Shown: piece by piece, positions 3,498-28,048 of the stretch
How positions within the stretch are numbered: position 1 is the first letter of the stretch
How the letters are laid out: each line of letters opens with the position of its first letter
Source of the DNA: Candidatus Bathyarchaeota archaeon
GTDB lineage: Archaea > Thermoproteota > Bathyarchaeia > RBG-16-48-13 > GCA-020355125
DNA: 54,567 nt
Reading direction: 5' to 3'
NCBI GenBank assembly: GCA_026015035.1
Contig: JAOZHB010000050.1
Span: 1-54,567 of the forward strand
Translations under genes and position numbers: made by a program
The notes under the pieces: model-generated
Databases searched by the model: none
Told to the model about the DNA's origin: nothing
What the model saw: the letters and a program-made list of their open reading frames with translations, nothing else

Positions 3498-3537
3498 AAG
3501 TGTGCATGGGCAATTAAACACACGACATTTTCCTTTT

Positions 3538-4350: not shown

Positions 4351-4395
4351 TCTGAATTCCCGATAGCTAGCTAATTTCGTCGTGAGAAGATCTTA

Positions 4396-4704
4396 TTACT
4401 TCTTTGCTTGTTCAAGCCAATCTTTTATGAACTTTAAGTTGCTAACGGATGTTGGTACGAACTCGGAGTAGGCCAGTGCTTGTTGATAAAGCCTTGCAAC
4501 TATTTTCAATGCCTTTTCTCTGTTTTCCTCATTTAAATTGTCAATGAGTTTTTCACATTCCTTTAATGAATTTACTGCTGGAACAGTAAGGTCTTGTGCA
4601 TCATAACTGTAAGACTCGATTTCAGATACACACTCTTTGATTTTCTGCGTAATCTCAGACAAGAAGTCATTCACCTTTATTGCCATTAAGCAATTATACA
4701 CCAC
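4396..4704 (-). CDS. Hypothetical helical protein
   Basis: 102 aa ORF with protein-like composition. Confidence 0.55.
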   Translation of the reverse strand: MVYNCLMAIKVNDFLSEITQKIKECVSEIESYSYDAQDLTVPAVNSLKECEKLIDNLNEENREKALKIVARLYQQALAYSEFVPTSVSNLKFIKDWLEQAKK

Positions 4705-4833
4705 TTCTTATTTATTTACTTCTCAAAGGCATAGTCATTTATACGGTATAGCACCTCATAACTAAGTGATTTGTAATCAAGCTCCGAGGTGGGGAGCTAT
4801 ATAAATACCAAGAAGAAAGGGAGGTAGAGAAAT

Positions 4834-5172
4834 ATGCCGACTCTTTTTGCTGTGTACAACATAAAAGAGAAACAAATGGCTGAGGAATTCGACAAATATC
4901 TCACCAACACGAAAATTCCAGGGATCAGAGGGGCGCCTTGGTGTACAGCATTTAATACTTGGAAGATAGACAAGGTTCTTGCGCCTGCAGTTTCTGAACC
5001 TGAGGGAGAACTGCCTTCAGAGTCTCCTTACATGTATGTTGCCAAGATTGAAGTATCTGATTTAGATGCAATGGTGAGTTTTCTTGGCACTGATGAAGGA
5101 AAAGCATTTGTCAAATCCTGGAGTGTCTACATTGATCCTGGAGCGATCTTCACACTGGGGCATGAAGTATAG
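4834..5172 (+). CDS. Dimeric alpha/beta-barrel (EthD/REDY-like) protein
   Basis: Size and pattern (LFAVYNIK..PYMYVAKIEV.D); GGAGG RBS. Confidence 0.6.
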   Translation: MPTLFAVYNIKEKQMAEEFDKYLTNTKIPGIRGAPWCTAFNTWKIDKVLAPAVSEPEGELPSESPYMYVAKIEVSDLDAMVSFLGTDEGKAFVKSWSVYIDPGAIFTLGHEV

Positions 5173-5313
5173 CAATCAGCTAACTAACGAGCGCACGCAC
5201 TAAATAGGAAATCAACAGGCAACTAAAAGCAAATAAACACATATCACCTCCTTTCTTTTTATTAGCTAGCTAGCTGAGATGCATCGTTCACTGATACAGA
5301 AGTTCATAGACTA

Positions 5314-5940
5314 ATGGAACGGGAATCGAAAGTATTGACTGAAAAAGAAGAGATTGTAAGAAAGGGATATGACCTAATGGCTGGAGACTATCATGATCAA
5401 CGTAATATCTTTAGAAACAAAAAAGAACTAGAAGAATTTACTAGTTTATTACCCAGAAACGCAAATGTCTTAGACCTGGGCTGCGGCGCCGGAGTTCCGG
5501 TAACAAAGGTCTTGGTTGAATCTGGATTATCCGTTACAGGAGTCGATTTCTCAGAAAGCATGCTTAACCTAGCAACTAAAAACGTGCCAGAAGCCAAATT
5601 CATTAAGAAAAATATGACGGAACTGGACTTCAAAGACAACTCCTTTAATGGTCTAACGGCATGCTATTCCATAATCCATGTACCCAGAGAGAAGCATGTT
5701 CCGTTATTTCAAACGTTCCATAGAATACTAAAACCCAACGGTATACTATTGATCAGTATGGGTTCCACTGGTTGGGAAGGAACGGAAGAATTTCATGGTA
5801 CACAAATGTTTTGGAGTCATTATGACCCTGAGAAAACTTTGCAGATATTAACAGATGCCGGGTTTGAGATTCTATTTGATAAGATTATTGCAGATGTTGG
5901 AGAAAAACATTATTGGATATTAGCTAAGAATAGAAAATAA
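5314..5940 (+). CDS. Class I SAM-dependent methyltransferase
   Basis: VLDLGCGAG, GVDFS, YSIIHVP, LKPNG. Confidence 0.92.
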   Translation: MERESKVLTEKEEIVRKGYDLMAGDYHDQRNIFRNKKELEEFTSLLPRNANVLDLGCGAGVPVTKVLVESGLSVTGVDFSESMLNLATKNVPEAKFIKKNMTELDFKDNSFNGLTACYSIIHVPREKHVPLFQTFHRILKPNGILLISMGSTGWEGTEEFHGTQMFWSHYDPEKTLQILTDAGFEILFDKIIADVGEKHYWILAKNRK

Positions 5941-6049
5941 TCTACACGCTTCTTGTAATCAGTATAACAGTCAGTACTATTCGAATACTAACAAACGATA
6001 AATCTAGCTAGCTTCTAATGAGTTGGGTTACGAGCTGTATGGTTCGAAG

Positions 6050-9453: not shown

Positions 9454-9942
9454 ATGCGGGGTAAAAGTCATTTGTTGCTGGCGATCCCCCTGTACGTTCT
9501 CAGCGTTAAATACCTCTCCCATGCTCAGGAACTCTTGTTATCTCCGTTTTTCGCCTTGTACTGTCTCACGGCCATGGTGGGCGCCCTCTTCCCCGATGTA
9601 GACTGGGCCATCGACAGAGTTATTCCGGGATTCGGTCATCGAAACCCTCTCACGCACTCGCTGCTGGGGCCCCTGCTCCTCTACATCCCGATATTCATCT
9701 ACAAGGTTTCCCATCCCCTGCTCACCAACTCGTACAACGCTTTCACCTTCGGGATTGCGACTCATCTATTCGGCGACTTAGTGAAAAGAGGCAACTTGAC
9801 ATGGGTCAAGTCGAGAAAACAAGAACACGCGTGGTACATCCTGAACGGAGCCGTATTGGTAGTCCTCTTATCCATGACCGAATTCCTCAAGGCCCTCCCT
9901 CTTGGAACGTCAATCATTAATTTCATCAACACCTTCTCTTGA
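9454..9942 (+). CDS. Membrane-bound metal-dependent hydrolase (YdjM-like)
   Basis: SH, GALFPDVD, HRNPLTHS and THLFGD motifs. Confidence 0.85.
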   Translation: MRGKSHLLLAIPLYVLSVKYLSHAQELLLSPFFALYCLTAMVGALFPDVDWAIDRVIPGFGHRNPLTHSLLGPLLLYIPIFIYKVSHPLLTNSYNAFTFGIATHLFGDLVKRGNLTWVKSRKQEHAWYILNGAVLVVLLSMTEFLKALPLGTSIINFINTFS

Positions 9943-10185
9943 AAACGCTGCGTTAAGCAAGCTAGAGGCTGATGAGTAATTATTGACGCTTCCATACTCT
10001 TGCTTACCCCGTTCCTTCCGACGTTATGCTGTGAGCCGTGTTGGGAGCCCCACGAGGCTTTCAAAGCCGCGTTCGACGCTCTACCGCTTCTGCTTCAGCC
10101 TCCTGTACAACTGCGAGCCCCCTTCGATGACGGGGTGGAGCGCGCGCTAGGCTCGACGTGGGCTGCTGCCTGAAGACGACTGACG

Positions 10186-10773
10186 TTACCTTGCCAGGGT
10201 GAAGCCCACTAAACAGGTGCCGACTGCACCTTCTTCAGAGGGGACATCTAGCATTCGCTTGATCAGGATGTCCCCTTCTGTTGAGGGCGTTCCAAAGACG
10301 CTGCATTTGACGGTGGAGAGGCCTTGAAGCTGAATTGCTTCTCGAGAAGGGTATATGATCCGGAGTTTACGCCTTCCCGCGGGATCTTTCGGAAGCCGCT
10401 TCACGTAGACGACGAAGTTTTCCCAGAGGAAGAAGTTATAAGGGCTTTTTCTCAGTTCCTCCAACGCGTCTTCGTCGTCTATGAGTTCACCTACGACTTG
10501 ATCGCCGCATCTCATGCTTACGTGGGGGTGATGGGGATGCGGAAATATTGACGACTGGATAACCATGGCGACAGTGAACTCCATCTGAAGGGCGGCTCTC
10601 ACGCCCTCATTCAGGGATTTGGACATCCCGAAAACGATTTTCTCCTCTACGTTCTTTTCAAGATCAAGAACTGTCTGCTTCTCCTCCTCTGACAGAAGCC
10701 TTGCGGCGATGACACCGCAGCACCCTCGTAACGTCCTTATCACGTTTTCAAGCTGACCCTTCTTGGTTTCCAT
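10186..10773 (-). CDS. Hypothetical protein
   Basis: 195 aa ORF, RBS-like GGGGAG upstream. Confidence 0.65.
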   Translation of the reverse strand: METKKGQLENVIRTLRGCCGVIAARLLSEEEKQTVLDLEKNVEEKIVFGMSKSLNEGVRAALQMEFTVAMVIQSSIFPHPHHPHVSMRCGDQVVGELIDDEDALEELRKSPYNFFLWENFVVYVKRLPKDPAGRRKLRIIYPSREAIQLQGLSTVKCSVFGTPSTEGDILIKRMLDVPSEEGAVGTCLVGFTLAR

Positions 10774-11051
10774 CGTTCTCCCCGTCCGCGTTCTTTGACG
10801 CTACATTAGGAGGGATTACTCATATAACAGTGATGTGAAGGCCTGCTAGCTCAAGCAACAAAGCTTTTGAAGCGGCGGATGCTACAAAAAACAGGTTGGT
10901 ATGCAGCTTCGTTTAAGGGCGTCGCAAGAGTCTAGTCTGCTGAGTGCCTCAAAATTTATAACGTCTATCACTGTTATAATACTAGTCAGTGTACCTAGAC
11001 GAGGTAAGCAATTATAAGGGTGAAGACAACAGCTTAATAGAGGTGGTATGT

Positions 11052-11273: not shown

Positions 11274-11434
11274 AACGTGCCCATCCGTCACGTAGAGTCA
11301 CGATTTTTCTTTGTCCCAATTTCCTCGACTAAGAGTACACTTTTTTTAAGCGTACATAGAGTTGCGAAAAATACTTATATGAGTATGAATTTGTGTTTTT
11401 AACTCAATTACATATTTTAATGGAGGAAAATGAA

Positions 11435-13084
11435 GTGTCTGCTATAGGTAACTTGGGGGGTCAACCCATCCTAATTCTCAGAGAAGGATCCAGCAGAAGA
11501 AAGGGAAAAGAGGCGCAGTACGCCAACATTCAAGCTGCTAAAGTCGTTGCCGAAGTGGTTAAAGCCACGTTAGGCCCTCGAGGAATGGACAAAATGCTCG
11601 TCGACAGCCTAGGAGACCTAACCATAACCAACGATGGACATGAAATCCTTAAGGAGATAGACGTAGAGCACCCCGCTGCCAAGATGATAGTGGAGGTTGC
11701 TGAGACGCAGGACGACGAGGTGGGAGATGGAACCACAACGGCCGTCATCTTAGCTGGAGACCTCCTCAAAAGGGCTCAAGAACTTCTCGACAAAAACATT
11801 CATGCAACAACCCTCGTAGCAGGATACAGAAAGGCTGCTGAAGAAGCCCTTCGGATTCTCAAGTCCGTTGCCGTCGACGTGGACCTCGATGACCGGGAGA
11901 CGCTTGGGAATATAGTTAAAACTTCAATGCGAAGTAAAGTCATCGGCCTCGCCGGAGACCACTTCGCCGACATCGCGATCGATGCAGTGAAGCAGGTGAC
12001 CGAGACGAAGGACGGGGAGATGACCGCTGACAAAGACGACATCCAAGTGATTAAGAAGACAGGAAAAAGCCTTATCGACACCCAGCTCATTCAAGGCATC
12101 GTCGTCGACAAGGAAGTCGTTCACTCGGACATGCCTAAACGCATCGAAGACGCTAAAATCGCCCTCATCGACAGCGCCTTAGAAGTCCAGAAGACGGAAA
12201 TGGACGCGGAAATACGGATAAGGGACCCCGTCCAAATGAAGGCCTTCCTCGACGAAGAATCGCGCATGCTTAAAGAGATGGTTAACAAAATATTGGAATC
12301 TGGAGCCAACGTCGTCCTCTGTCAAAGAGGCATCGACGACGTCGCCCAATACTTCCTCACGAAGGGAGGTGCGTTGGCGGTCAGACGAATAAAGTCGTCG
12401 GACATGGAAAAACTCACCAAGGCCACGGGCGCGAGGTTGATAACAAACCTTGACGACCTCACCGCAAAGGACCTCGGTGAGGCCCGATTGGTCGAAGAAC
12501 GCAAGATCGGGGACGACAAGATGGTCTTCATTGAAGAGTGCAAGAGTCCCAAGGCGGTCTCGATACTGATCCGCGCGGGATTGGAACGGCTGATCGACGA
12601 AGTTGAACGAGCACTCAACGACGCGCTATCCGTGATGGTCGACATCGTGAAACAGAATAAAATTGTCGCCGGAGGCGGCGCCATCGAAGCAGAGCTATCC
12701 AAGCGAATCCGGGACTACGCTGCCACGGTCGGCGGCAGGGAACAACTAGCCATCGAGGCCTTCGCCGACTCCTTAGAGATCATCCCGGTCACCTTGGCCG
12801 AGAACGCGGGATTGGATCCCATAGACATCTTGGTCGCGCTGCGGTCGGCCCACGAAGAAGCCGACGGATTGTGGAAGGGCGTCAACGTCTTCACGGGTAA
12901 AGTGGTTGACATGATGGACGACGCCGTGTTGGACCCCCTCGCCGTCAAGGAACAGGCCATCAAATCGGCTGTCGAAGCCTCCTCAATGATTCTGAGAATC
13001 GACGACGTCATCGCCTCGGCGAAGACTCCACCTCCACCTCCGCAAGGAGGAGGCGGCGGCTACGGTGGAATGCCCCCGTACTAG
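11435..13084 (+). CDS. ths: Thermosome subunit (group II chaperonin)
   Basis: [26 protein letters not shown]; GTG start chosen from GGAGG RBS (ATG 11420 is an alternative). Confidence 0.97.
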
Positions 13085-13107
13085 GGGCACACACCATCCA
13101 TCCACCC

Positions 13108-13117
13108 TTTTTCTTTT
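13108..13117 (+). terminator. Oligo-T archaeal terminator
   Basis: TTTTTCTTTT about 24 nt after the thermosome stop. Confidence 0.5.
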
Positions 13118-13190
13118 AATCGTTTATAGGTAAGGGTCTTCTGTTTATAGACCTCGAGATTTTCCATAGAACCGGTGAATCGAACGACAA

Positions 13191-13228: not shown

Positions 13229-13321
13229 GCTCCGGTAGTGTAGTCCGGCTAAGCATTCGAGCCTCTCGACACCCGTGGGAGAAAGCTCGTGACCCGGGTT
13301 CGAATCCCGGCCGGAGCACCA
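13229..13321 (+). tRNA. trnE: tRNA-Glu(CTC) with a 15-nt canonical 37/38 intron (13269-13283), CCA encoded
   Basis: GCTCCGG/CCGGAGC acceptor stem, CGAGC/GCTCG anticodon stem, GGTTCGAATCC T-arm; CTCT/GGAG central helix with 3-nt bulges forms a BHB. Confidence 0.95.
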
Positions 13322-15732: not shown

Positions 15733-16839
15733 TTGGAACCACGAAAAATTCAACGAGTGGGCACATCAACTTTAGCTGTATCCCTACCAAGCGATTGGGT
15801 AAAAAATACGGGATTAAAGAAAGGCGACCTCATATATTTCGAACAAGGCGAGGAAGGCTCATTAAAACTTGTTACGAATACCAGTACTAAACAGGAGAAA
15901 TCTATTGAGGCCATCGAGGTATACGCGGACCTGTGCAATAACCCAATGATGCTTTCAAGAATTTTAGTAGGAAACTACGTTCTGGGTCGTGATGTGATCA
16001 AAGTTGTGTCAAAAAACCGCTTAACAAGGGAGTATGTAGATGCCATCAGATCCACGTTACGAGGCTTGATGGGCATGGCAATCATGGAAGAAGCTCCCAA
16101 CCACGTCGTGCTTCAAAGTTCAATCGATGTCACCCAATTCCCCATTCATACTCTATTACGACGCCTTTACATCATAGCCTCCACGATGTACAACGAAGCC
16201 GTGGGTTCCTTCTTTGATTCCAACCTCATTTTGGCAAGAGATACTATTAGCCGACGAAACGAAGCCGATACCATGTTTTGGGTAATCGTTCGACTGCTAG
16301 ATGCTGCTCAAAGAGATAAAGTAACGGCCACCAAAATTAATATTCAAGACTCAATGAATGTGTTATGGTTCCGGGTTGTGGCGCATTGTTTATGGAGAAT
16401 GGCGAATTGGTCAGAAAAAATCGCAAATAAAGCAATCGCCTTAGAAGACAATCGCAAACTAATAGGCGACCTTTTACTACGCGAGGTTCGCAGAATCAGC
16501 GATGAAGCAGTCAGCATCTCCCACAAAGCTATGAACAGCTTATTCTCAAATGACATCGAACTTGCGACTAAGACAATCCAGGAATATGAAACAATCCAAA
16601 AAGATGAAGAAGCGTTACAAGAGAAGATATGCAGCCACGCGTATTTACGAGGAAAGTCCTTTTCCGTTACCAAGTTTTTTAAAGGTACAATGCCCATTGA
16701 GCCTTGTGTCATAGCTCAACTTAGTTTTATCCTTTGGTCCATTAGACGGATGGCTGAACTGGGATCAGAAATAGCGGACATAGCGATCACAAAAGCCCTA
16801 AGCAAACAAACGAAGATCTGCAACATAACTAGTGAATGA
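15733..16839 (+). CDS. AbrB/SpoVT-PhoU domain transcriptional regulator
   Basis: RKIQRVG.ST..VSLP..W N-terminus followed by PhoU helical repeats. Confidence 0.88.
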   Translation: MEPRKIQRVGTSTLAVSLPSDWVKNTGLKKGDLIYFEQGEEGSLKLVTNTSTKQEKSIEAIEVYADLCNNPMMLSRILVGNYVLGRDVIKVVSKNRLTREYVDAIRSTLRGLMGMAIMEEAPNHVVLQSSIDVTQFPIHTLLRRLYIIASTMYNEAVGSFFDSNLILARDTISRRNEADTMFWVIVRLLDAAQRDKVTATKINIQDSMNVLWFRVVAHCLWRMANWSEKIANKAIALEDNRKLIGDLLLREVRRISDEAVSISHKAMNSLFSNDIELATKTIQEYETIQKDEEALQEKICSHAYLRGKSFSVTKFFKGTMPIEPCVIAQLSFILWSIRRMAELGSEIADIAITKALSKQTKICNITSE

Positions 16840-17107: not shown

Positions 17108-17626
17108 ATGGGCCTTGAATTAAAGAACACTGCTTTACAGCAAAGGGTAAACTGCATGGGCAAGCAGATCTGCGTGAATACCGATCGATTCTATACACGG
17201 AATCATCTGTGGGTCAAAGTTACGCCTGAAGGAAACTTGAAGATAGGGATAACAGATTATGCTCAACAATTCCTGAAAAAGAAGGCGGCGTTAGTGGAAT
17301 TCATGAAGAACCCCACAGTACGTGACAGCATTGAGGAAGACGAAGTCTTTTGCACAGTCTATGGCGAAATGTATCCGGACCCCGAAACGTTGAAAGCCGA
17401 GTGCATGGCCTTCGATGTGATTTCTCCCATAGCGGGGAGGATACTTGAAGTCAATGAATCCGTCCTAGACAAACCCCACCTCGCAAACACGTGTTGCTAT
17501 GACGAGGGCTGGATTGCCATCATTAAACCTACGGAAGACTGGACGATATCTGACACCCTCGTCCGACCAGAACGATACGTAAAACTGTTAACGAAGGCTG
17601 GGAAGAGCCCGCTAAGGGTTCTCTAA
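17108..17626 (+). CDS. GcvH-fold (lipoyl-domain-like) protein with an atypical lipoylation loop
   Basis: YTRNHLWV, IGITDYAQ, SPIAG.I.EVN, EGWI; canonical ESVK absent. Confidence 0.85.
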   Translation: MGLELKNTALQQRVNCMGKQICVNTDRFYTRNHLWVKVTPEGNLKIGITDYAQQFLKKKAALVEFMKNPTVRDSIEEDEVFCTVYGEMYPDPETLKAECMAFDVISPIAGRILEVNESVLDKPHLANTCCYDEGWIAIIKPTEDWTISDTLVRPERYVKLLTKAGKSPLRVL

Positions 17627-17681
17627 CCCTCAAATTCAGCTAGCTAGCTTGATAAGAACAGCATCAACAAAGGGATGAAAT

Positions 17682-17915
17682 ATGACCCAATTTGAAAATC
17701 CAGTAAACTGCAAGAAATGTGGGAATCCGATGGAATTTATCCACGGCGACATCAACTCGTGTGCACTATACTACTGCGAGACGTGTAACCTTGTCTATCG
17801 GTACTGTGCTGAATACGAATCCCTCGAGCAGGTCTGTCCGTGTCCCCCAAAGCCACAAAAGAGGTTATCGGAACTGAAGACGATAAACGCGAAACCCGCG
17901 CGCGTTAGCTATTAA
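17682..17915 (+). CDS. Small Cys-rich zinc-ribbon protein
   Basis: CKKC, CETC and further Cys. Confidence 0.65.
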   Translation: MTQFENPVNCKKCGNPMEFIHGDINSCALYYCETCNLVYRYCAEYESLEQVCPCPPKPQKRLSELKTINAKPARVSY

Positions 17916-17938
17916 GAGGCTTCTGGGGTCTGAGAGAT

Positions 17939-18397
17939 ATGAAGAATCCGATTAAGGCACTTCAAGACGCACAGAACGCGCATGGCTACCTATCTACAGT
18001 GACCTTGCAATCCATATCAAAGAACCTTAATCTCCCCTTGAGCAAAGTCTATGGGATCGCCACTTTTTACCATCAATTTCGCCTGCAACCTGTCGGCGAA
18101 TACGTGATATACATCTGTAAAGGAACGGCATGCCACACCGAAGGAAAGGAAACCATCATCCAATACTTACGGGAGTTTCTGGGCTTAAAAGAGGGAGAAA
18201 CCACCACGGACGACGGAATATTCACCATTGAATATGCCCGATGCTTTGGGTGCTGCAGCTTAGCACCCGTGATTATGGTTGCTGACAGACGCGGGTTCAG
18301 CAGTCAAATTTTTGGGAATTTAACGCCTGCAACGATAACAACGATCATTAACGACTATAAAACCGAGTATCTCTCCATCCCGGTGGGGGTGCTCTAG
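17939..18397 (+). CDS. NuoE/HydC-like [2Fe-2S] subunit
   Basis: VYGIATFY, C.GTAC, CFGCCSLAP. Confidence 0.92.
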   Translation: MKNPIKALQDAQNAHGYLSTVTLQSISKNLNLPLSKVYGIATFYHQFRLQPVGEYVIYICKGTACHTEGKETIIQYLREFLGLKEGETTTDDGIFTIEYARCFGCCSLAPVIMVADRRGFSSQIFGNLTPATITTIINDYKTEYLSIPVGVL

Positions 18398-20197
18398 TTG
18401 GCTACCAAACATTGGCTTACCGTCAAGGTCCCCTTAGCCAGTTGCACCATCGCATCGGGCGCGGAAGAAATCCTCAACGAAGTGTCAAAGCAAGAGCAAA
18501 TTGACGTGAAGACCGTCGGGTGTATGGGCCTCGACTTCATCGATCCATGGATTGAACTAGAAGCAGACCCGTATCCACCCGCCATCTATGCAAACGTCAA
18601 GGCGGAAAACGTTGAACGCATCATAAACGACTACGTATCGAGAAACCTGTCCTCCGCCTATGCGTTACGGTATCGAACGAAGCAGCCTCAAGGCCAGAAA
18701 AAGATACCCGTGTTAAACGAATTGGATGCATGGAAGCACCAAACGAAGTGGGTCACCCGTAACTGTGGCATCGTCAACCCCGAATCGATAGAAGATTACG
18801 TGGCTCACGGAGGATATCAGGGTCTTCAGCGAAGCCTCAGTATGACGCCGGAGGACGTTATCAAGGAATTGAAGCAGGCGGGTCTCAGAGGTAGAGGTGG
18901 AGCAGGATTCCCAACCTGGTTGAAATGGAACATCTGTCGAGAGCAAGGTGATACACCGAAATACGTCATCGCCAACTGCGACGAAGGCGATCCAGGCGCA
19001 TTCATGAACCGATTGCTCGCTGAGTCCGATCCGCACAGGATCGTGGAAGGCTTGATGATCTCTGGATACACGATAGGCGCAGAGCAGGGCTTCATCTTCG
19101 TGCGAGCAGAGAAGCCGTTAGCCGCGAAAAGGCTGGAAAAGGCTGTTCACGATGCAAGGACAGCAGGGTACCTCGGTGACCACATTGTAGGTAGCAACTT
19201 CAACTTCGACGTCGAAGTGTTCCTGAGTGCAGGGGCATTCGTCTGCGGTGAAGAAACCGCGATGATCGCATCGATGGAGGGGGGGCGAGCACATCCCCGG
19301 CAGCGACCGCCATACCCTGCAACGAAGGGGTTATGGGATAAGCCAACCACGATCAACAACGTGGAGACCTTGGCCCACGTGGCAACGATCTTGACGGAGG
19401 GCAGTGAGAACTTTCCCGACGGAACCGCAAAGACGCCTGGGACCAAAGTGTACTGCGTCACCGGATCCGTGAAACGGACAGGGGCCTTCGAGGTTGCAGT
19501 AGGCACTTCAATCCGAAAACTGGTGTACGAGATCGCGGGCGGCCCTCCAGAAGGCAGGGACGTCAAAGCGTTTCAAATTGGTGGACCCAGTGGCGGCTGC
19601 ATCCCCGCGTCCATGGCCAATCTTTCCCTCGATTATGAGACGCTGCAAGCGGTAGGCGCCATTATGGGGTCCGGTGGAATCGTGGTAATCGACGACACCA
19701 ACTGCATGGTTGACATCGCGCGGTTCTTCGTCTCCTTCACGAAGGCTGAAAGCTGTGGAAAATGTTTGACTGGACGAGTTGGAACGAGGATCATGGCGGA
19801 AACGTTGGACAAGATCGTCCAGGGGAAGGGAGCCCCATCGGATTTAGACAACTTAGCGACCGTGTGTGACAGTATGACGAAGGCCAGTCTCTGTGCGTTA
19901 GGTCGAACCGCGCCCAACCCCGTGTTGACCACCCTCAAATACTTTCGCGACGAATACCAGGCCCACATTCAGGAGATGACATGTCCAAGCCTGGTCTGTA
20001 ATCCACTGATTACGTATCGCATAGAGCCCACCACATGTATTGGCTGTACGTTATGCGCACGAAATTGTCCAGCCCACGCGATCACGGGTGAAGTAAAGGG
20101 CGTCCACGTCATTGACCAGGACAAATGTGTAAAATGCGGGACATGCATTGAGGCTTGCCCGCAAAAAGCCATCAGTAAACATACGGGAGGAGAATAA
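18398..20197 (+). CDS. NuoF/HydB-like FMN/NADH-binding subunit with C-terminal 2x[4Fe-4S] domain
   Basis: GRGGAGFP, NCDEGDPGAFM, AFVCGEETA, GGPSGG, CIGCTLC/CVKCGTC. Confidence 0.95.
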   Translation: MATKHWLTVKVPLASCTIASGAEEILNEVSKQEQIDVKTVGCMGLDFIDPWIELEADPYPPAIYANVKAENVERIINDYVSRNLSSAYALRYRTKQPQGQKKIPVLNELDAWKHQTKWVTRNCGIVNPESIEDYVAHGGYQGLQRSLSMTPEDVIKELKQAGLRGRGGAGFPTWLKWNICREQGDTPKYVIANCDEGDPGAFMNRLLAESDPHRIVEGLMISGYTIGAEQGFIFVRAEKPLAAKRLEKAVHDARTAGYLGDHIVGSNFNFDVEVFLSAGAFVCGEETAMIASMEGGRAHPRQRPPYPATKGLWDKPTTINNVETLAHVATILTEGSENFPDGTAKTPGTKVYCVTGSVKRTGAFEVAVGTSIRKLVYEIAGGPPEGRDVKAFQIGGPSGGCIPASMANLSLDYETLQAVGAIMGSGGIVVIDDTNCMVDIARFFVSFTKAESCGKCLTGRVGTRIMAETLDKIVQGKGAPSDLDNLATVCDSMTKASLCALGRTAPNPVLTTLKYFRDEYQAHIQEMTCPSLVCNPLITYRIEPTTCIGCTLCARNCPAHAITGEVKGVHVIDQDKCVKCGTCIEACPQKAISKHTGGE

Positions 20198-20198
20198 C

Positions 20199-20666
20199 AT
20201 GATGTATTCCAAAATGATACCCTACAAAGAAATTACCACGCAGCTCGATCGAGAGGATACGATTGCGGTGATAAGCTGTAACACCTGTGCCAGGGAATGT
20301 GGTTTGGGAGGCGTATCTAAGGCTGACGAGCTGGTTGAAAGACTGGTGCGAGACGGCTATGATGTCACGGAGGAAATTGTGCTGCAGGACGCCTGCTCAG
20401 AGCCCGTGTATCGAAAAGCACGAATACGGCTAGAAGCGGACGCCGTCATTGTTCTCGCGTGTAGTGCCGGAATCAGCTGCGTAAAACGATTGTATCCGAA
20501 GAAGAAGGTGTTAACCGTGACGGAGGACGTGGGGCTCTTCGTCACCGATACAGAATTAGAAGTATTCAAGGTTGCACTACCGTTTGCAGGCTTCGAAGAA
20601 GGAGCCGAATACGCGATGTCCACGGGAGCCCCACTACATAAACAAAAGATCAGGTTGGTGAATTAA
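20199..20666 (+). CDS. Stand-alone MetV N-terminal-like Cys domain protein
   Basis: SCNTCARECGLGG...AC...VLACSAG matches the N-terminal half of the MetV at 24901-25650; GGAGG RBS. Confidence 0.7.
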   Translation: MMYSKMIPYKEITTQLDREDTIAVISCNTCARECGLGGVSKADELVERLVRDGYDVTEEIVLQDACSEPVYRKARIRLEADAVIVLACSAGISCVKRLYPKKKVLTVTEDVGLFVTDTELEVFKVALPFAGFEEGAEYAMSTGAPLHKQKIRLVN

Positions 20667-20668
20667 CA

Positions 20669-21859
20669 ATGATTATTTCATTGCGTGAACTAAGCTATGA
20701 TGAACTGAAAAACAAGCTGAAAAAAGACGATGAAATCGTCCTATGGAGCTGTGATGAATGTATCAAACATTGCGGACTCGGTGGCATGGAGCAGCTACAA
20801 GTCTTAGAGGACTTGCTGAAGCGTGACGGATACCGCGTCCAGAAGGACCTGATAAGCCGATCATGTTTCCTGAACCTCGTCCGTAACCACGAAACCGCAG
20901 TGTCCCACGCCTCGACCATCATCGTGTTGGCATGCGACCTGGGCTACACATGCGTGAAAACCGTCTTTCAAGACAAACAGGTGGTGAAGACCATGAACAC
21001 CGTGGGGACAGGAAACTACACAGTTTACCGGGGCCCTGTTCTGACGTCACCCTTGCCGTGGACGAAATTAGAGCCTTCCGAAAACGGATACACGTTGAAA
21101 ACAGTGTCCGAGAAATTAGGGCTGTATCCTTCATTCTTTGACGCCGTTGACACGGTGGATCTTGTGAACATCGTGGTTGACGGTAAACCATTCCAAGCGA
21201 AAAACGGGGAGAACCTCCTGGATGCCTTGCAGAAGCTGGGCTTCAGGATTCCCCACTTATGTTATGACCCCAGTCTCGGATTGATTGGGGCATGCCGACT
21301 CTGTATGGTGAAAATCAAGGGACGGTTCTTCCCTTCCTGTTGCACGGAAGTTTCTGAAGGCATGGAGATCGTTGTGAACGACGATGACTTGGATGAGCAT
21401 CGTAGACTGATGCTGGAGTTCATCATCGCGGAAAAGGGGTTGGACGTGACCAAGAGAAGCAGGGAACTGCGTTACTGGACGCGAAAATACAAGCTTGCTG
21501 AAACGCGGTTCAAGCTGAAAATGAAGGACCAGCAGGTGGATGATTCAAGCGAGGTAATGGTTATCGACCCCAGCCTATGCGTCTTATGTGAGCGATGCGT
21601 TGTAGCCTGCAATAATGTGTCGGGGCAGCATGTCATCGATTTTGCCGGTCGAGGAAGCGATACACAGATGATAACGGGGTTAAATGAGCGGTTCAGTGAG
21701 ACAAACTGTGCCTCGTGCATGGCTTGTGCCCATTATTGTCCGACCGAGGCCATAACTCCCAAGCTCCTCATCAAAAAACTGGCGATAAAGCAGAAACCAC
21801 TCCAACCGATTGCACCTCCTTTGGTAGCGTCATCGATAAAATCCAGAGGAAATGGGTGA
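20669..21859 (+). CDS. Fusion of MetV N-terminal-like domain and NuoG/HydA/FdhA-type N-terminal Fe-S relay (no catalytic domain)
   Basis: SCDECIKHCGLGG..VLACDLG, then IPHLC..GACRLC..SC and CVLCERC..C/CASCMAC..CP; ends at 396 aa. Confidence 0.85.
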   Translation: MIISLRELSYDELKNKLKKDDEIVLWSCDECIKHCGLGGMEQLQVLEDLLKRDGYRVQKDLISRSCFLNLVRNHETAVSHASTIIVLACDLGYTCVKTVFQDKQVVKTMNTVGTGNYTVYRGPVLTSPLPWTKLEPSENGYTLKTVSEKLGLYPSFFDAVDTVDLVNIVVDGKPFQAKNGENLLDALQKLGFRIPHLCYDPSLGLIGACRLCMVKIKGRFFPSCCTEVSEGMEIVVNDDDLDEHRRLMLEFIIAEKGLDVTKRSRELRYWTRKYKLAETRFKLKMKDQQVDDSSEVMVIDPSLCVLCERCVVACNNVSGQHVIDFAGRGSDTQMITGLNERFSETNCASCMACAHYCPTEAITPKLLIKKLAIKQKPLQPIAPPLVASSIKSRGNG

Positions 21860-21895
21860 GATGAGAGGCCTAAGTTGGCTAATGAAAATAATTGA

Positions 21896-22141
21896 ATGAC
21901 CAAGAAGACGAAGAGTCTGGTAACAGCTAGGAGGTTTATGAAAATGAAGGTCGGTATTGGTTACCCAAAACCATGTGATGCGTGTTATTGGAAAAAGTGG
22001 CCGTATGCTCGGAAAGCCGAGGTCTGTGGTTTCCATAATAAGCCCAACGTAGATGGTACTTGTACACACTTCGAACATGAGTTTCCAGAAGTAGAATACG
22101 AACACCCTCTGAAAATGGACAGAAGACGAGGTCTAAGATAA
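21896..22141 (+). CDS. Small Cys/His-rich protein
   Basis: CDAC, CGFH, C; stop codon abuts the next start. Confidence 0.6.
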   Translation: MTKKTKSLVTARRFMKMKVGIGYPKPCDACYWKKWPYARKAEVCGFHNKPNVDGTCTHFEHEFPEVEYEHPLKMDRRRGLR

Positions 22142-23536
22142 ATGCGGTATAGAGTCGACCCCGAATTCAAGCATAAGATCATAAACAGGGAAGGCGGGGC
22201 CTCCTTTAAAACATGTTTCCAATGCGGCACATGTACCGCCAAGTGCCCCGTCTCCCAACACGTTGACTTGCTGCGACCCAATAAGATCCTTCACATAGCG
22301 AAGTTAGGCATACAGAACCACCTACACAGCAACGGGTTCTGGCTGTGTGCTGGCTGCAACGCCTGCGTCTCCACATGTCCCCAAGGCGTAGACCTCCCAG
22401 CAATCATGCACGCCATGAAAAGCCTGGCAGCAGAGGAGAACCAAATTCCTCGCTTTCTCTGCGACTATGAAGTGTTGCGAGAGATCCCGTTTCCCCTCAT
22501 ATATACGTGGCTCTGCCTTGACCCCGACAGCTTTCCCAGGTACCATTCTAACGTTAATGAATGGGTACGCCGAAGCATCCAGGGGTACCTTCGAAGGTAT
22601 CAGGAAGCCAAACCCGATATCACACACAAAGAGAAGGTCGCGGTCATTGGAAGCGGCCCCGCTGGACTCTCCTGTGCTTGGGAGCTGATCAGATGCGGCT
22701 TCTCTGTCACGATCCTGGAACGGGAGGAGCAGGCAGGCGGTATGCTACGGACAGGTTTACCCGCCCATAGATTACCGAAAGAGCTGGTGGACTCCGAGAT
22801 CCAACACCTTGAGGCCTTAGGCGTGGTTGTCAAGACCAACGAAGATGTGGACGCTTCGACCTTTAACGAGTTCGCAGGATATGACGCGGTCTTCTTGGCA
22901 ACGGGCTCCCATCGGAAACGGCGTCTACACGTGGAGGGAGAAGAATTGAGCGGGGTCATCCACGCCATCGACTTTCTTAAAACTATGAACACGCGTGGTC
23001 TATCCAGTTTAGACCGCGTCATCGTCATTGGTGGCGGTGGAGTAGCCATCGATGCCGCCCGCACCGCGATTCGATGTGGAGGTGGAGTGCGGATGTTCTG
23101 CCTCGAAGCAAGGAATGAGATTCCAGGTCATGAATGGGAGCTTCAGCAGGCCTTTGCGGAGGGCGTGGAACTGGAGCCCTCGTGGGGTGTCCAGCGAATC
23201 CTTGGTGAGAAGATAGTGGAAGGCCTCATCCTGAAGCGATGCATCCAAGTCTTCGATGGTCAAGGACGGTTTCATCCCGTTTACGACGAAGAGAAGACGA
23301 AGCGAGTGAACGCGGATACGATAATACTCGCGATTGGACAGGGACCCGATGTTTCCTACTTGGACAAGCTAGTGAAAGTGGGACGAGGCATTATCATTGA
23401 TCCCAACACGATGATGACAAGTGAAAACCGCGTCTATGCTGGAGGGGATGCCGTGAGGGGTGTCGCCAGCATCATGGAAGCCATGGATGATGGTAAACAA
23501 GCGGCATCGACGATTATCAAGCGGTTCTCTAGCTAA
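22142..23536 (+). CDS. HdrC-like 2x[4Fe-4S] domain fused to a GltD-like FAD/NAD(P) oxidoreductase
   Basis: CFQCGTC..CP, WLCAGC..C..CPQGVD; VAVIGSGPAGL, VIGGGGVAIDAAR, AIGQ, AGGD. Confidence 0.88.
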   Translation: MRYRVDPEFKHKIINREGGASFKTCFQCGTCTAKCPVSQHVDLLRPNKILHIAKLGIQNHLHSNGFWLCAGCNACVSTCPQGVDLPAIMHAMKSLAAEENQIPRFLCDYEVLREIPFPLIYTWLCLDPDSFPRYHSNVNEWVRRSIQGYLRRYQEAKPDITHKEKVAVIGSGPAGLSCAWELIRCGFSVTILEREEQAGGMLRTGLPAHRLPKELVDSEIQHLEALGVVVKTNEDVDASTFNEFAGYDAVFLATGSHRKRRLHVEGEELSGVIHAIDFLKTMNTRGLSSLDRVIVIGGGGVAIDAARTAIRCGGGVRMFCLEARNEIPGHEWELQQAFAEGVELEPSWGVQRILGEKIVEGLILKRCIQVFDGQGRFHPVYDEEKTKRVNADTIILAIGQGPDVSYLDKLVKVGRGIIIDPNTMMTSENRVYAGGDAVRGVASIMEAMDDGKQAASTIIKRFSS

Positions 23537-23643
23537 ATGGGGATCCCTGGCAAGTCCGCTTGGCTTCTAAGAATGGTGAATAACATGAATGTCACAAGCT
23601 AGATGAGGAACTCTACATCAACCACTATACCTACTATCGCCAG

Positions 23644-24678
23644 CTAGCTGACCTGACTTGGGAAAGAATTAGACTTGCTGATTTCAATGTTTATGGCCAC
23701 TGAAGCCATGGTTCCGCTATTTTCCGCTATCATCGCTAACATAATGGAAATGGCTCGATAGTAGGGGCTAATCGCTTTCCGCATTTGCCCCTCAACTTCT
23801 GTATCTAATTTCATCCGTAAGTTAAGGGCTTCATTTGCGGTGATTACATCCTTGGAAAAAAGGGATTCGACAGCTTTTTTAAATAATTCCTTTGTCAGTT
23901 GATCGATTGATGATAGCTTATTTAACTCACGCAGGTCTATTCCTGCTTTCATTGTGTGAAGGTCAAGAGCAATCTTGGCTAAGCTTTTTGAACAATCTGC
24001 AATCCTTTCCAAGTTTTTTGAAACGAGTCTTACAGAGATGGGACTGAAAGCTTCGTCTAAACCAATATTTTCAGCTAACGTGGGAGACTTCTGGGCAGAG
24101 AGTAATAACCTCGCAATGAGCCAGTAAATGTTATTGGCTTCGTCCTCTCTTTTAATTACGTCGTTAGCTAGCTCGGGGTCTTGTGTCAGTAGGGCTTCCA
24201 TGGCCTCATTCAGCATTGTAGACGTGATGACAGATAGTCGTTGTAATAGGGAATAGATATTCAATTTTGATGCGTTGATAAAGCATTGAAGAATGATTTC
24301 GTTTCGTGATGCTTCCATGATGCTGGCACCAACAAGTCTTTGAACAATGTTCCTCACTTCTTCGACTTGTTTACCTTTAATGCGGTTTGAGGCGTATATC
24401 TTGATTACATCGACACCCGTCATATAGCCGCCAACGATTAGCCGCTCCAATAGGTTGGGCTCTTTGATTTGGTCACAATTTATATAGTATTCATTTGGCT
24501 TCCTCGCTTCTCCAAGATTCTTCTCACTAAAGATTCGCAGGGACTCGTCTTTACCCTGGTCAATGTGGACAGTGTCTCCAGGTTTTAAGCCTACGAGGTT
24601 AACCCAAGCTTTTGGTAACGATACGCTGAGAGTCGAACGCCCAACTTTCTGAATTTTCCTTTGTTCCAAATCAGGCAC
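23644..24678 (-). CDS. AbrB/SpoVT-PhoU domain transcriptional regulator (second paralog)
   Basis: RKIQKVGRST..VSLPK.W; LERIAD PhoU motif. Confidence 0.9.
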   Translation of the reverse strand: MPDLEQRKIQKVGRSTLSVSLPKAWVNLVGLKPGDTVHIDQGKDESLRIFSEKNLGEARKPNEYYINCDQIKEPNLLERLIVGGYMTGVDVIKIYASNRIKGKQVEEVRNIVQRLVGASIMEASRNEIILQCFINASKLNIYSLLQRLSVITSTMLNEAMEALLTQDPELANDVIKREDEANNIYWLIARLLLSAQKSPTLAENIGLDEAFSPISVRLVSKNLERIADCSKSLAKIALDLHTMKAGIDLRELNKLSSIDQLTKELFKKAVESLFSKDVITANEALNLRMKLDTEVEGQMRKAISPYYRAISIMLAMIAENSGTMASVAINIEISKSNSFPSQVS

Positions 24679-24736
24679 TTCGCAACATAAAAAATTGGAA
24701 TTACAGATATTATTCCGCTTGTCATATGTATATGTT

Positions 24737-24886
24737 TCATATTCCGCTAATTACATACCCGTTAAGCGCGTGAGCCTCGTTTAACACCTCAGAGAGATCC
24801 GCGGTTTGTACAGGCGCCCCCTCTCCGGTGAAGACGAAGTCCTCCCTCTGCAGCTTCGTCATAAAGGTTAAACGGTCCTTTGTCAA
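24737..24886 (-). pseudogene. metF: 5' remnant of methylenetetrahydrofolate reductase
   Basis: Translates (M)TKDRLTFMTKLQREDFVFTGEGAPVQTADLSEVLNEAHALNGYV, resembling MetF N-termini; directly downstream of metV with GGAGG RBS; stops after 49 aa. Confidence 0.7.
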
Positions 24887-24900
24887 CGCCGTTTCCTCCG

Positions 24901-25650
24901 TTATTTCGTGGATTTGCCGTGGTTTCGAGCGTCTCGCAGGGCCTTCACGATGATCTCAGGTGTTTCGCTGGGCCCGAGAAGGGGACTGCTCTTAATCTTC
25001 ATATGGCTGGGAATGGCGTCGATTCCCCGGGGGTAGGCTTGTAATCCGAACTGTTTCGGGGACCGTATCTTCCGGAATAATTCCATCCGCCCCTGTTTTT
25101 TCAACCGCTCCCAAATTAAGACCCATGCGCAATCCCGGACGTATCCCCCCACCTCGCATTTTCCATCCATCATTCCGCCGCAGGGACCATTCATTAACCC
25201 CTTGGCACACCGTGTCACGGGGCAAATTCCCGCGGTCTCGCCTAAGTAGCATTCGCCACACGCCTTGCAGCGTTCATAGTACAGCCCTATTCGCTCAACC
25301 TTTCCCAAGAAGTGGGTATCTAATCCGGGAAAGCACGGAAGATCCACCACGTCAGACAGGGTTTGAACCCCCGCTCCACATGCCAAAACAAGTAATGCGT
25401 CAACGTCCTTTCCCAACCTCTTAATATGTCTCCAGTTCTTTCGGGCAAGTCGTTCGTCACAGGGGGCTTCTATCATCATGGTCTCTACAAACCATCGTCC
25501 GCGGAGTCTGTCAGCCATTTCCTCAACCTGCTTCTCCCCACCGGTTTGGACTTCCGTGGCACACGTGCCGCATCCAACGATCAACACGTTAGTGTAGGGT
25601 TCAAGATACCTCATGATTTCTTTAAGCGGTTTTTGGGTAGTGACGATCAT
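24901..25650 (-). CDS. metV: MetV (MTHFR C-terminal-domain Fe-S/Zn protein)
   Basis: MIVT.QKP, GCGTC, LACGAGVQ, CKACGEC, GICPVTRCAKGL.NGPCGG, CAW. Confidence 0.9.
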   Translation of the reverse strand: MIVTTQKPLKEIMRYLEPYTNVLIVGCGTCATEVQTGGEKQVEEMADRLRGRWFVETMMIEAPCDERLARKNWRHIKRLGKDVDALLVLACGAGVQTLSDVVDLPCFPGLDTHFLGKVERIGLYYERCKACGECYLGETAGICPVTRCAKGLMNGPCGGMMDGKCEVGGYVRDCAWVLIWERLKKQGRMELFRKIRSPKQFGLQAYPRGIDAIPSHMKIKSSPLLGPSETPEIIVKALRDARNHGKSTK

Positions 25651-26896: not shown

Positions 26897-28048
26897 ATGA
26901 AAATAACGGACATTAAGGTCGTGAGAAACCGTAAACCAGTTATTCTGCCAGAAGCGTGGCAACCTGCATGGCAGATGCCAGATGTTGAACCGAGAAAGAC
27001 GATGGGATTCTCAATTATAACGATTCACACCGATGAAGGCATAACCGGCGTGGGCCCGGGACGACTTTCAGAGACGAACCTCGAACGGCTGAAGGGAGTC
27101 CTCGTGGGGTTTGACCCACTGTATGTGGAGGCGTTCTGGCAGAATTACATCTGTCAAAGCGGTGGACGAGGGATTACGGGGCGTGAATCGCTGGGCGGCG
27201 TGGACACTGCGCTGTGGGACATCGTCGGAAAGACCGTGGGCAAGCCCGTCTACAAGTTATTGGGTGCATATCGTGACCGAGTCCCAGTATACATTGCGAC
27301 GGCGCAACTGCACTCGCCCGAAGAGCATGCGAAGGAAGCGGTTGCGTTCAGGGAGCAAGGGGCGCGGGCCATCAAGCTACGCCTCCACCGACCCAACTAC
27401 AAGGACGACCTGGCCGTCGTCCAGGCGGTGCGGGACGCAGTCGGACCCGACATGAACATCATGGTGGACGGCAACCAAAACAACTGGTCACCCAGCTACA
27501 AACACTGGCCCCGTCGAATCGCCATGTGGATGGCGAAGAAACTGGACGCGTTGGACGTCTACTACTTTGAAGACCCCCTCCCCCTCCGAGATCTAGAGGG
27601 CCTCAAACAGCTGGCCAACGCCGTCGACATGTACATCTCGGGTGGCGAACACGCCCAAGACATCTTCCAATTCGCGTCGCTCCTGGTGAGCGGCGCGTTA
27701 GACATCGTTGAAACCGACATAACGATCGGCTCCCGCATCGGCATGACCGGCGCGAAGAAGGTGGCCCACATCGCCGAGGCGCTTGGAAAACGGGTGGTTC
27801 CGCACGTTACTACGGGGCCCAATAAAGGCCTTCATCTCGCTGCGTCTTTGCAGGTGGCGGCAACCGTGCCGGAGTGGGTGTGCCCCTACGTGGAGTACAT
27901 TCGAGAGCCGCCAGCGCTCACAGTGGAAACCCAACAATTCCTCATCAAAGAGCCCATACTCTTCGGAAAGGATGGGTGCGTGCCCGTGCCGCAGAAGCCG
28001 GGAATCGGCGTCGAAATCAACGAAGAAACGCTCAAAAAGTACTTGTAA
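26897..28048 (+). CDS. Mandelate racemase/muconate lactonizing enzyme family protein
   Basis: DTALWDI.GK..GKPVY.LLG, D-E-E metal ligands, PGIGVE. Confidence 0.93.
   Translation: MKITDIKVVRNRKPVILPEAWQPAWQMPDVEPRKTMGFSIITIHTDEGITGVGPGRLSETNLERLKGVLVGFDPLYVEAFWQNYICQSGGRGITGRESLGGVDTALWDIVGKTVGKPVYKLLGAYRDRVPVYIATAQLHSPEEHAKEAVAFREQGARAIKLRLHRPNYKDDLAVVQAVRDAVGPDMNIMVDGNQNNWSPSYKHWPRRIAMWMAKKLDALDVYYFEDPLPLRDLEGLKQLANAVDMYISGGEHAQDIFQFASLLVSGALDIVETDITIGSRIGMTGAKKVAHIAEALGKRVVPHVTTGPNKGLHLAASLQVAATVPEWVCPYVEYIREPPALTVETQQFLIKEPILFGKDGCVPVPQKPGIGVEINEETLKKYL

Follow-up and report, generated by a model that had tools for sequence, protein, structure and literature searches.

Complexes of the Bfu family (PMC9304861; PMC11829005) combine a NuoE-like subunit with a [2Fe-2S] cluster termed C1 (BfuC), a NuoF-like flavin mononucleotide (FMN) subunit with an N-terminal thioredoxin-like domain and C-terminal 2x[4Fe-4S] clusters (BfuB), and a [2Fe-2S]/[4Fe-4S] relay (BfuA); the B1 cluster of the NuoF-like subunit is part of the B1-FMN-C1 flavobicluster that is the proposed site of bifurcation (PMC11829005; this paper, PMC9304861, PMC8760232, PMC6067878 and PMC11216029 are cited throughout for the sections of each that were covered). 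Two further systems are close to the one described here. In the Nfn-Bfu/Stn transhydrogenases (StnABC of Sporomusa ovata, PMC7483475; NfnABC, PDB 9n5u), NuoE-, NuoF- and GltD-like modules are encoded in one operon and NfnA joins the GltD- and NuoG-like parts in a single polypeptide. In the type III methylene-tetrahydrofolate reductase (MTHFR) of Acetobacterium woodii (RnfC2-MetV-MetF, PMC8760232), the NADH-binding flavoprotein module RnfC2 itself bears a MetV-type domain and is joined by a second MetV-type protein, MetV being the Fe-S and Zn subunit that feeds MetF. Here we analyze an operon on a 54,567-nt contig of Candidatus Bathyarchaeota archaeon (GenBank assembly GCA_026015035.1, contig JAOZHB010000050.1; the entire stretch is referred to hereafter as the window, and its source genome, a 2.06-Mb assembly that is 88% complete with 7.4% contamination, as G000). 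The operon represents a variant of the HydBC/NuoEF-core complexes that is conserved across domains of life and has so far gone undescribed, and in it a pair of MetV-N-type (MVN) domains constitutes the third arm; the substrate that we assign to this arm is a proposal.

The operon comprises eight co-directional plus-strand genes spanning 17090–23536, with intergenic gaps of 0–55 bp (Table 1). A first-pass annotation of this DNA had described co-directional, mostly tightly spaced genes joining a HydBC-like module to MetV-type domains, a GcvH-fold protein and an HdrC::GltD fusion, with no [FeFe], NiFe or Mo-bisPGD catalytic subunit, and the domain searches agree: Pfam detects no H-cluster, NiFe or Mo-bisPGD domain in the operon, and a scan of 20 other large open reading frames (ORFs) of the window turned up no catalytic domain of a hydrogenase, formate dehydrogenase or Mo/W enzyme. 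Nine of the ten genes named in that annotation were borne out by family searches and motifs. The tenth was a metF' converging with metV; the metV is sound, and the supposed metF' was rejected, being instead a regulator with PhoU and MazE/AbrB-type domains. A single sequencing run labelled metatranscriptomic, which is marked as probably DNA, has contigs over 27 of 30 operon bins and was not used as evidence of expression.

The NuoEF core of the operon has the composition of a Bfu complex. NuoF residues 8–592 match 9bov_B, 8oh5_B and NfnB (9n5u_B) at full length (3e-190 to 2e-186) and include the features of BfuB (the GAFM motif and both C-terminal CxxCxxCxxxC motifs), and NuoE has the family match and the four Cys residues of a BfuC with its C1 cluster (Table 1); a relay of the BfuA kind completes the likeness. 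The complex differs from the Bfu family in that it has none of the catalytic domain or subunit types named in the covered sections of the PMC9304861 classification, in that its BfuA counterpart bears an N-terminal MetV-N domain and is accompanied by a free paralogue of that domain, and in the B1 cluster. The ESCGxCxxC motif for B1 (N3), near the FMN, has Gly in place of its third Cys in the window (G459, 19772–19774), a substitution shared by 28 of 34 full-length NuoF orthologues from both domains of life (L004–L147), Cys being present in the other six; the Cys is kept in the GltD-fused forms discussed below, in L125, in L134 and in L137 (82% identical to the window NuoF). No compensating Cys common to all Gly forms was found, since in the best column 57% of these forms have Cys and the window has Ser, and the B1 cluster could still form with three Cys. 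A second departure lies at the C-terminus, where Firmicute and spirochaete NuoF proteins (570–581 aa) are without the dicluster domain. Because B1 belongs to the proposed bifurcation flavobicluster, we leave it undecided whether the core bifurcates, and since the B1 motif deviates and many relatives are without the ferredoxin-type domain, we do not file the complex as an established bifurcating member of the family.

What distinguishes the operon is its pair of MVN domains, one free (MVN155, whose true start is the ATG one base past the NuoF stop) and one fused to the N-terminus of a HoxU-like relay (MVN::HoxU). The two are paralogues with 32% identity, and neither MVN155 nor residues 1–165 of the fusion have a Pfam match, PF12225 being absent from both proteins. 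Comparison of the MVN family with MetV (hhalign, alignment A2 versus A5) nevertheless returns a probability of 99.8% (E 8.5e-30, 122 columns), and four residues, Cys 27, 30, 66 and 88, are invariant in 46 orthologues and align with invariant Cys of MetV. By the measure of these alignments the MVN domains are homologous to the N-domain of MetV, and the two proteins are members of that family rather than MetV, having no DUF5981 (the MetV C-domain) and no MetF. From the four invariant Cys, together with the published prediction and iron content of MetVF, we infer that each MVN domain binds one Fe-S cluster.

A HMMER search of 1.84 billion representative sequences gave 149 MVN-family matches at E ≤ 1e-3, 38 at ≤ 1e-10 and three at ≤ 1e-30, and 18 of the 149 were scanned against Pfam. 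Seven of these are MetV with PF12225 (one fused to MetF, one to a histidine kinase); eight comprise five short proteins that match no Pfam family, two relay fusions of the MVN::HoxU type and one protein joined to a HycI-type protease domain; and three long repeat proteins (Ank, LRR, TPR/kinase) were judged to be spurious relatives. Longer fused MVN forms were sought and none was found, which we take as weak evidence, and the Atlas clusters are labelled "hypothetical protein" throughout. In the AlphaFold2 model of MVN155 (pLDDT 96.7), a Rossmann-like alpha/beta domain is followed by the beta-rich tail, with the four Cys placed at strand ends. Searches with this model brought up no specific relative of known structure: the best Foldseek match has an E-value of 9e-3 (none at E ≤ 0.001), and the wide fold search with VIA peaked at Z 9.3 (3eaf_A, rmsd 5.5 over 122 residues), its matches being generic Rossmann or periplasmic-binding-protein lobes at the background level stated for that search. 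A sequence search of the PDB with MetV249 likewise gave nothing below E 0.46, leaving MetV without a solved homologue by sequence.

The remainder of the fusion (residues 166–365) is a [2Fe-2S] + 2x[4Fe-4S] relay that resembles HoxU or the N-terminus of HydA or NuoG, and PDB matches to MVN::HoxU are limited to residues 162–372. The nine-residue segment for the His-ligated [4Fe-4S] cluster (PF10588) is deleted in archaeal MVN::HoxU proteins and kept in bacterial ones (alignment A1, columns 271–279; window gene versus L007–L011). A second HoxU-like relay of the source genome (34% identity over residues 165–366) lies in a 927-aa open frame, presumably a larger catalytic subunit of another complex (Table 1).

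Relatives of the operon were recovered by alignment-based scanning, a contig scan with the single sequence having found none. The scan yielded 80 loci in species genomes (eight matching from residue 1) and 80 in metagenomes, and a word-based search gave 93 relatives of the fusion, 71 of which cover at least 82% of it. We analyzed 54 loci (L004–L011, L097–L140, L147 and L148) and left out 106 (L012–L083, L141–L146 and L149–L176) that match the HoxU-like half only and are part of genes of the hydrogenase, formate dehydrogenase or complex I types. The gene immediately upstream of the fusion is MVN in 46 of 46 testable loci, NuoF precedes MVN in 39 of 39 and NuoE precedes NuoF in 31 of 31, counts that are not to be taken as independent events, as many of the archaeal loci are close kin. 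NuoE, NuoF, MVN and MVN::HoxU thus form a four-gene core whose order is the same in every locus with the flank present, and this core has no MetF, hydrogenase, formate dehydrogenase or Mo/W subunit alongside it. Synteny therefore bears out the core of the gene set that the first-pass annotation had put forward; HdrC::GltD, which it had included, is restricted to one lineage. A maximum-likelihood tree of the fusion separates, at 100/100 support, a bacterial-type group (12 rows: Bacillota, Spirochaetota, Thermodesulfobacteriota and one record labelled archaeon) from an archaeal group (26 rows). Within the class itself the operon is patchy, since G000 is the sole carrier of a full-length fusion among 301 sampled genomes, four other matches covering the relay half only. 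A GcvH-like protein of 78% identity is labelled Miscellaneous Crenarchaeota Group by its source, and those relatives at 51–55% identity that bear a source label (P0017, P0018, P0051) are labelled Bathyarchaeota.

Table 1. Genes of the window and of related loci to which the text refers. Positions without a locus name are those of the window.
Feature	Location	Strand	Basis or remark
PhoU + MazE/AbrB-domain regulator	15733..16839	+	PF01895, PF04014
GcvH-fold protein	17108..17626 (ORF start possibly 17090)	+	PF01597, 4e-19
77-aa Cys-rich, Zn-ribbon-like protein	17682..17915	+	8 Cys, two CxxC; no Pfam/NCBIfam match
NuoE/HydC/BfuC-type thioredoxin-like [2Fe-2S] subunit	17939..18397	+	PF01257, 4e-41; Cys 60, 65, 102, 105
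NuoF/HydB type, 599 aa	18398..20197	+	Pfam; GAFM at 200; CxxCxxCxxxC at 547 and 577
MVN155, free MetV-N-type domain, 155 aa, C-terminal beta-rich extension	20199..20666	+	no Pfam match
MVN::HoxU fusion, 396 aa	20669..21859	+	Pfam/NCBIfam; MetV-N-type residues 1–165, relay 166–365
81-aa protein (Cys81), four Cys	21896..22141	+	no family match
HdrC::GltD fusion, 464 aa	22142..23536	+	Pfam/NCBIfam; HdrC-like 2x[4Fe-4S] + GltD/NfnA-like FAD/NAD(P)H domain
Second PhoU + MazE/AbrB regulator	23644..24678	-	PF01895, 8e-20; PF04014, 5e-7
Orphan full-length MetV (N-domain + DUF5981)	24901..25650	-	PF12225, 4e-33
93-nt tRNA, four-base anticodon undetermined	13229..13321	+	ARAGORN
Enolase-superfamily (MR_MLE) paralogue	26897..28048	+	
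Enolase-superfamily (MR_MLE) paralogue	38787..40166	-	
Enolase-superfamily (MR_MLE) paralogue	49842..50984	+	
715-aa ORF	47069..49216	-	no Pfam match at E ≤ 1e-5
AhpD-family protein, 119–134 aa, CxxCxxxH	other-clade loci		TIGR00778, 54 bits vs 27.8
Single biotin/lipoyl domain, 75–93 aa, hairpin Lys	other-clade loci		PF00364, 1e-10
Lipoate-protein ligase (LplA)	other-clade loci		TIGR00545, 370 bits vs 280
J-domain protein, CoA-disulfide-reductase-like gene	L123: 8979..9626, 9723..11045		Thermodesulfobacteriota-type
J-domain protein, CoA-disulfide reductase (CoADR)-rhodanese fusion	L130: 10706..11314, 11350..13134		Thermodesulfobacteriota-type
Two tandem Cys-type GcvH-like genes beside PhoU	L181, G067:C38:1-2432		contig end
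Operon with [FeFe] hydrogenase genes	L186, G089:C61:1-6831: 551..2296, 2303..4282, 4279..4776, 4760..5440, 5452..5979	-	
Second HoxU-like relay	L002, G000:C121:2286-5915		927-aa open frame

The genes around the core point to a small thiol carrier. In the archaeal-type loci this is a GcvH-like protein, whose gene lies directly upstream of NuoE in all 16 loci that could be tested (at least 600 bp present upstream of NuoE), with a gap of 16–132 bp. The window protein scores 69 bits against PF01597 (cut-off 22.2) and matches 1onl_A in the PDB (2.5e-13), yet falls below both NCBIfam cut-offs for GcvH (58.4 versus 115.85 for the equivalog); it has a 14-residue hairpin insertion, a conserved N-terminal Cys and a conserved C-terminal tail. 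The first-pass annotation had it as a GcvH-fold carrier; a role as lipoyl carrier is one that the alignments speak against. In the MAFFT alignment the canonical lipoyl-Lys column holds Cys in the window clade, and in the ~53% clade a Cys stands two residues before this column (L116 has both Cys). Unlike MAFFT, phmmer aligned the lipoyl-Lys to a nearby Lys of the window protein, a position at which relatives have E, T, Q or R. The four other GcvH genes of the source genome keep the lipoyl-Lys. With Cys at the Lys column and the nearby Lys non-conserved, the idea of lipoylation was dropped, and the GcvH-like protein is probably not lipoylated.

A different set of carrier genes accompanies the core elsewhere. 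In five of 13 other-clade loci (L007, L008, L011, L124 and L131) the operon adds genes for an AhpD-family protein, a single lipoyl domain and a lipoate-protein ligase (Table 1); L007, L008, L011 and L131 share the order AhpD, lipoyl domain, LplA, NuoE, with gene ends overlapping or tight, and in L124 the three genes flank the operon. Other loci have thiol or sulfur genes of further kinds: L006 has a convergent gene for a true dihydrolipoyl dehydrogenase (Lpd; 481 bits vs 408.8), L010 has an ArsR-rhodanese protein and a CMD protein as neighbors, and in L123 and L130 the genes after the operon encode a J-domain protein and then a CoA-disulfide-reductase-like protein or a CoADR-rhodanese fusion, respectively. 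Lpd-based relays offer a parallel, the one in mycobacteria running from Lpd through a lipoyl protein to the AhpD peroxidase. LbpA proteins, which bind lipoate, serve the sHdr route of sulfur oxidation (PMC6067878). These systems and the present loci have in common a small lipoyl or GcvH-like carrier and a dedicated lipoate ligase beside an Fe-S/flavin oxidoreductase, the AhpD-type CxxC protein of the Firmicute operons being a further likeness to the mycobacterial relay. They differ in that the reductase here would be the NuoEF/MVN Fe-S complex and not the flavoprotein Lpd, in that the archaeal carrier has Cys for the lipoyl-Lys, and in that the operon contains no HdrB/CCG subunit.

We tentatively propose, with a confidence short of even, that the operon encodes a Bfu-family variant in which the MVN pair conducts electrons from NAD(P)H and ferredoxin to a protein-thiol carrier. 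The products would assemble into a single soluble complex, an Fe-S flavoprotein with the HydBC/NuoEF core of the Bfu kind, in which the FMN of NuoF would exchange hydride with NAD(H), and NuoE and the C-terminal dicluster domain of NuoF would form the ferredoxin branch. The HoxU-like relay would bring mid-potential electrons to a heterodimer of the two MetV-N-type domains, one fused and one free, and from this pair they would pass to a small barrel-sandwich carrier, whose hairpin-tip thiols would accept them. That carrier would be the Cys-for-Lys GcvH-fold protein encoded by the first gene of the operon here, and in Firmicutes a lipoylated single-domain protein, in turn serving the AhpD-type CxxC protein. 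In the window lineage electrons could also reach the FAD/NADP(H) site of GltD by way of the HdrC-like clusters. The domain content, the gene order, the homology to MetV-N and the recurrence of carrier genes are direct observations; that the products form a single complex, the direction of electron flow and the role of the carrier as substrate are what we infer from them. A pair of MetV-type domains joining an NADH module to its acceptor has a precedent in RnfC2 of the type III MTHFR, a system from which the present one differs in having neither MetF nor DUF5981 and in using NuoEF and a HoxU-like relay, not RnfC, as its NADH module.

Several observations weigh against this proposal. The core may depart from the workings of canonical Bfu complexes, as Gly replaces its third B1 Cys in 28 of 34 orthologues; the Firmicute forms of NuoF have no ferredoxin-type C-terminal domain; and the potentials of lipoyl and thiol couples are close to that of NADH, which makes a bifurcating core unnecessary for reduction of the carrier. 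Within the MVN domains, the four invariant Cys are all that indicates an Fe-S content. A carrier gene nearby was not seen in eight of the 13 non-archaeal-type loci. Canonical Lpd above the TIGR01350 cut-off is present in four of five operon-carrying genomes (E2 genes occur in two of the five and GcvH-family matches in all five), so there is no missing lipoyl reductase to explain, and the idea that the operon replaces a missing Lpd was dropped.

A further point comes from outside the operon's own relatives. In the class sample, a profile search placed the specific GcvH-like family (E < 1e-50) in G000, G067 and G089, the 20 other matches to the profile (~1e-26 to 1e-29) being presumed ordinary GcvH. 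G067 has two tandem Cys-type copies beside PhoU. A 6.8-kb contig of G089, which belongs to the same family as G000 and has 4% contamination, carries in order PhoU, a divergent Cys-type GcvH-like gene, a 226-aa membrane protein, NuoE, NuoF (659 aa) and a 581-aa HydA with all three H-cluster motifs (Fe_hyd_lg_C, 2e-97); MVN genes are absent from this short contig, and its HydB keeps the canonical B1 motif. The operon is a group-A3-like hydABC; in the sections of PMC11216029 covered, A3 HydABC is reported from DPANN, Thermoplasmatota and Lokiarchaeia, and Bathyarchaeia are named for group F hybrids only. Because the third arm in G089 is an [FeFe] HydA, the PhoU/GcvH-like pair goes with the NuoEF core whatever the third arm, which lowers the odds that the GcvH-like protein is a substrate specific to the MVN pair; it may be a thiol partner or accessory of the core rather than a substrate.

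A regulator gene goes with the GcvH-like gene as well. Every archaeal locus examined has a PhoU/AbrB gene of the 15733–16839 type adjoining its GcvH-like gene (L005, L097–L099, L102, L104, L106–L108, L110, L112, L116, L122, L129 and L147, and likewise G067 and G089), divergent in most of them and co-directional in the window and L097/L098. In the window two such regulators, paralogous to each other, flank the operon on either side.

The chief rival reading, which does not exclude a thiol carrier, starts from the genes downstream of the core. The GltD part of HdrC::GltD matches NfnA (9n5u_A) at 1.1e-55 over residues 163–457 (PF07992, 1e-26), and the HdrC-like domain, with both HdrC-type CxxCxxCxxxC motifs, matches HdrC 9sfi_E at 2e-15 over residues 19–102 (2e-15 to 1e-12 across HdrC chains); no HdrB/CCG-domain partner was found in the operon. 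The window lineage would thus have every module of an Nfn-Bfu transhydrogenase, and the operon could be a split Nfn-Bfu/Stn-like enzyme coupling NADH, ferredoxin and NADPH, with the role of NfnA divided between MVN::HoxU (relay) and HdrC::GltD (FAD/NADPH) and with the MVN and GcvH-like proteins as structural or regulatory accessories. Such an enzyme accounts for the NuoE-like and NuoF-like subunits with C-terminal diclusters, the HoxU/NuoG-like relay and the GltD-like domain together, as well as for the closeness of NuoF to NfnB (2e-186); in a sister clade (L006, L118–L120, L126) NuoF continues at its C-terminus into a GltD domain that includes the usual Fer4_20 part; and the presence of the GcvH-like gene with a HydABC operon is as expected of an accessory. 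A transhydrogenase-like complex had been one of the suggestions of the first-pass annotation, and for the window lineage the resemblance of the GltD part to NfnA of Nfn-Bfu agrees with it.

Beyond that lineage, however, the fit is lost. HdrC::GltD and Cys81 follow the fusion in the window clade only (L097, L098; 80% identity, the Cys81 homologue being 54–55% identical and in the same place); L099 retains just an HdrC-like remnant; the operon of the ~53% clade ends at a convergent feoB, with a GltD homologue several kb beyond it in L106 and L133; and HdrC::GltD is missing altogether from the Firmicute operons. As the fusion is missing from most relatives, the conserved function cannot be NADP(H)-linked, and HdrC::GltD would better be viewed as an accessory NADPH module. 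Nor does a transhydrogenase explain the invariant MVN pair or the lipoyl, LplA and AhpD genes, and the Fer4_20-type N-domain of NfnA is here replaced by an HdrC-like one. The complex is not NfnABC or Stn because the single-polypeptide fusion of NfnA is absent, its two parts being separate genes with the 81-aa gene between them. For the window itself we consider a split transhydrogenase possible, though somewhat less probable than the thiol-carrier proposal. The 77-aa Zn-ribbon-like gene is similarly lineage-specific; L097/L098 do not have it, the 51 bp between their GcvH-like and NuoE genes being too short for it.

It is unlikely that the carrier genes are unrelated neighbors, adjoining for regulatory or historical reasons a complex with a substrate of another kind. 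The accessory genes do vary between clades, the operon is patchy among the 301 sampled genomes, and the GcvH-like gene always travels with the PhoU/AbrB regulator; set against this are the shared strand and 0–55 bp gaps in the window, the GltD-NuoF fusion in one clade, and the independent acquisition of hairpin-tip thiol carriers in two domains of life.

The link to methylene-tetrahydrofolate (methylene-H4F) reduction that the first-pass annotation had drawn is not supported, its metF' having proved to be a regulator gene and neither MetF nor the MetV C-domain being found in any of the 54 loci. On this reading the complex would be an NADH/ferredoxin module, and its MVN pair would dock in trans either to the orphan MetV or to a MetV/MetF whose genes lie in another part of the genome, in the manner of RnfC2-MetV-MetF. 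The homology of MVN to the MetV N-domain, the MetV-type domain borne by RnfC2 (PMC8760232), the position of the orphan MetV 1.4 kb downstream of the operon, the two metVF pairs of the source genome and the presence of MetF in four of five other operon-carrying genomes are in keeping with this. MetF, however, is too widespread for its presence to be evidence, and it was not found in G301, the genome of L005, which comes without a completeness figure; both MVN proteins are without DUF5981. The source genome has three MetV genes in all, two of which are paired with its two metF genes on other contigs, and this leaves the metV of the window as an orphan third copy; it is convergent with the operon, stands behind a regulator gene and was not seen downstream of GltD in L097. 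Docking to MetF is the least probable of the readings considered here.

A predicted complex of MVN155, MVN::HoxU and the GcvH-like partner scored 0.03 (mark 0.32) without controls and is counted neither for nor against any reading. The window holds other features that stand apart from the operon: a tRNA that may be an intron-containing archaeal tRNA, three enolase-superfamily paralogues with aldolase, FAA-hydrolase and short-chain dehydrogenase genes near them, and a long ORF with no Pfam match (Table 1).

Full-text literature searches gave no description of this operon, in keeping with the earlier view of the arrangement as undescribed; the supplementary clade tables of the Bfu survey, which lie outside that search, may list the cluster as unassigned, and in the main text of the survey (PMC9304861) a word search found no mention of MetV, lipo, glycine cleavage, methylene or Bathyarchae. 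Bfu-type complexes are classed by their third arm, and the conserved MetV-N pair, which is without a solved structure, is absent from the survey sections covered; it provides a third arm common to Bathyarchaeia and several bacterial phyla. The steady company of thiol carriers gives the proposed protein-thiol reductase a concrete, testable substrate, be it a Cys-for-Lys H-protein or a lipoyl domain accompanied by a ligase of its own and by an AhpD-type protein. The recurrent loss of the B1 Cys could aid dissection of the flavobicluster mechanism. The finding also bears on a question of acetogen bioenergetics, the redox partner of MetV. In acetogens lpdA and gcvH adjoin metVF, and GcvH was considered as a redox partner and judged unlikely (PMC8760232). 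One bolder idea, to which we give a low probability, is that MetV-N-type four-Cys domains are docking and reduction sites for swinging-arm thiol carriers (lipoyl domains and H-protein-like proteins), the present complex being an Fe-S-dependent lipoyl or protein-disulfide reductase driven by a HydBC/NuoEF core; by extension, a lipoyl or H-protein carrier would be the physiological redox partner of acetogen MetVF.

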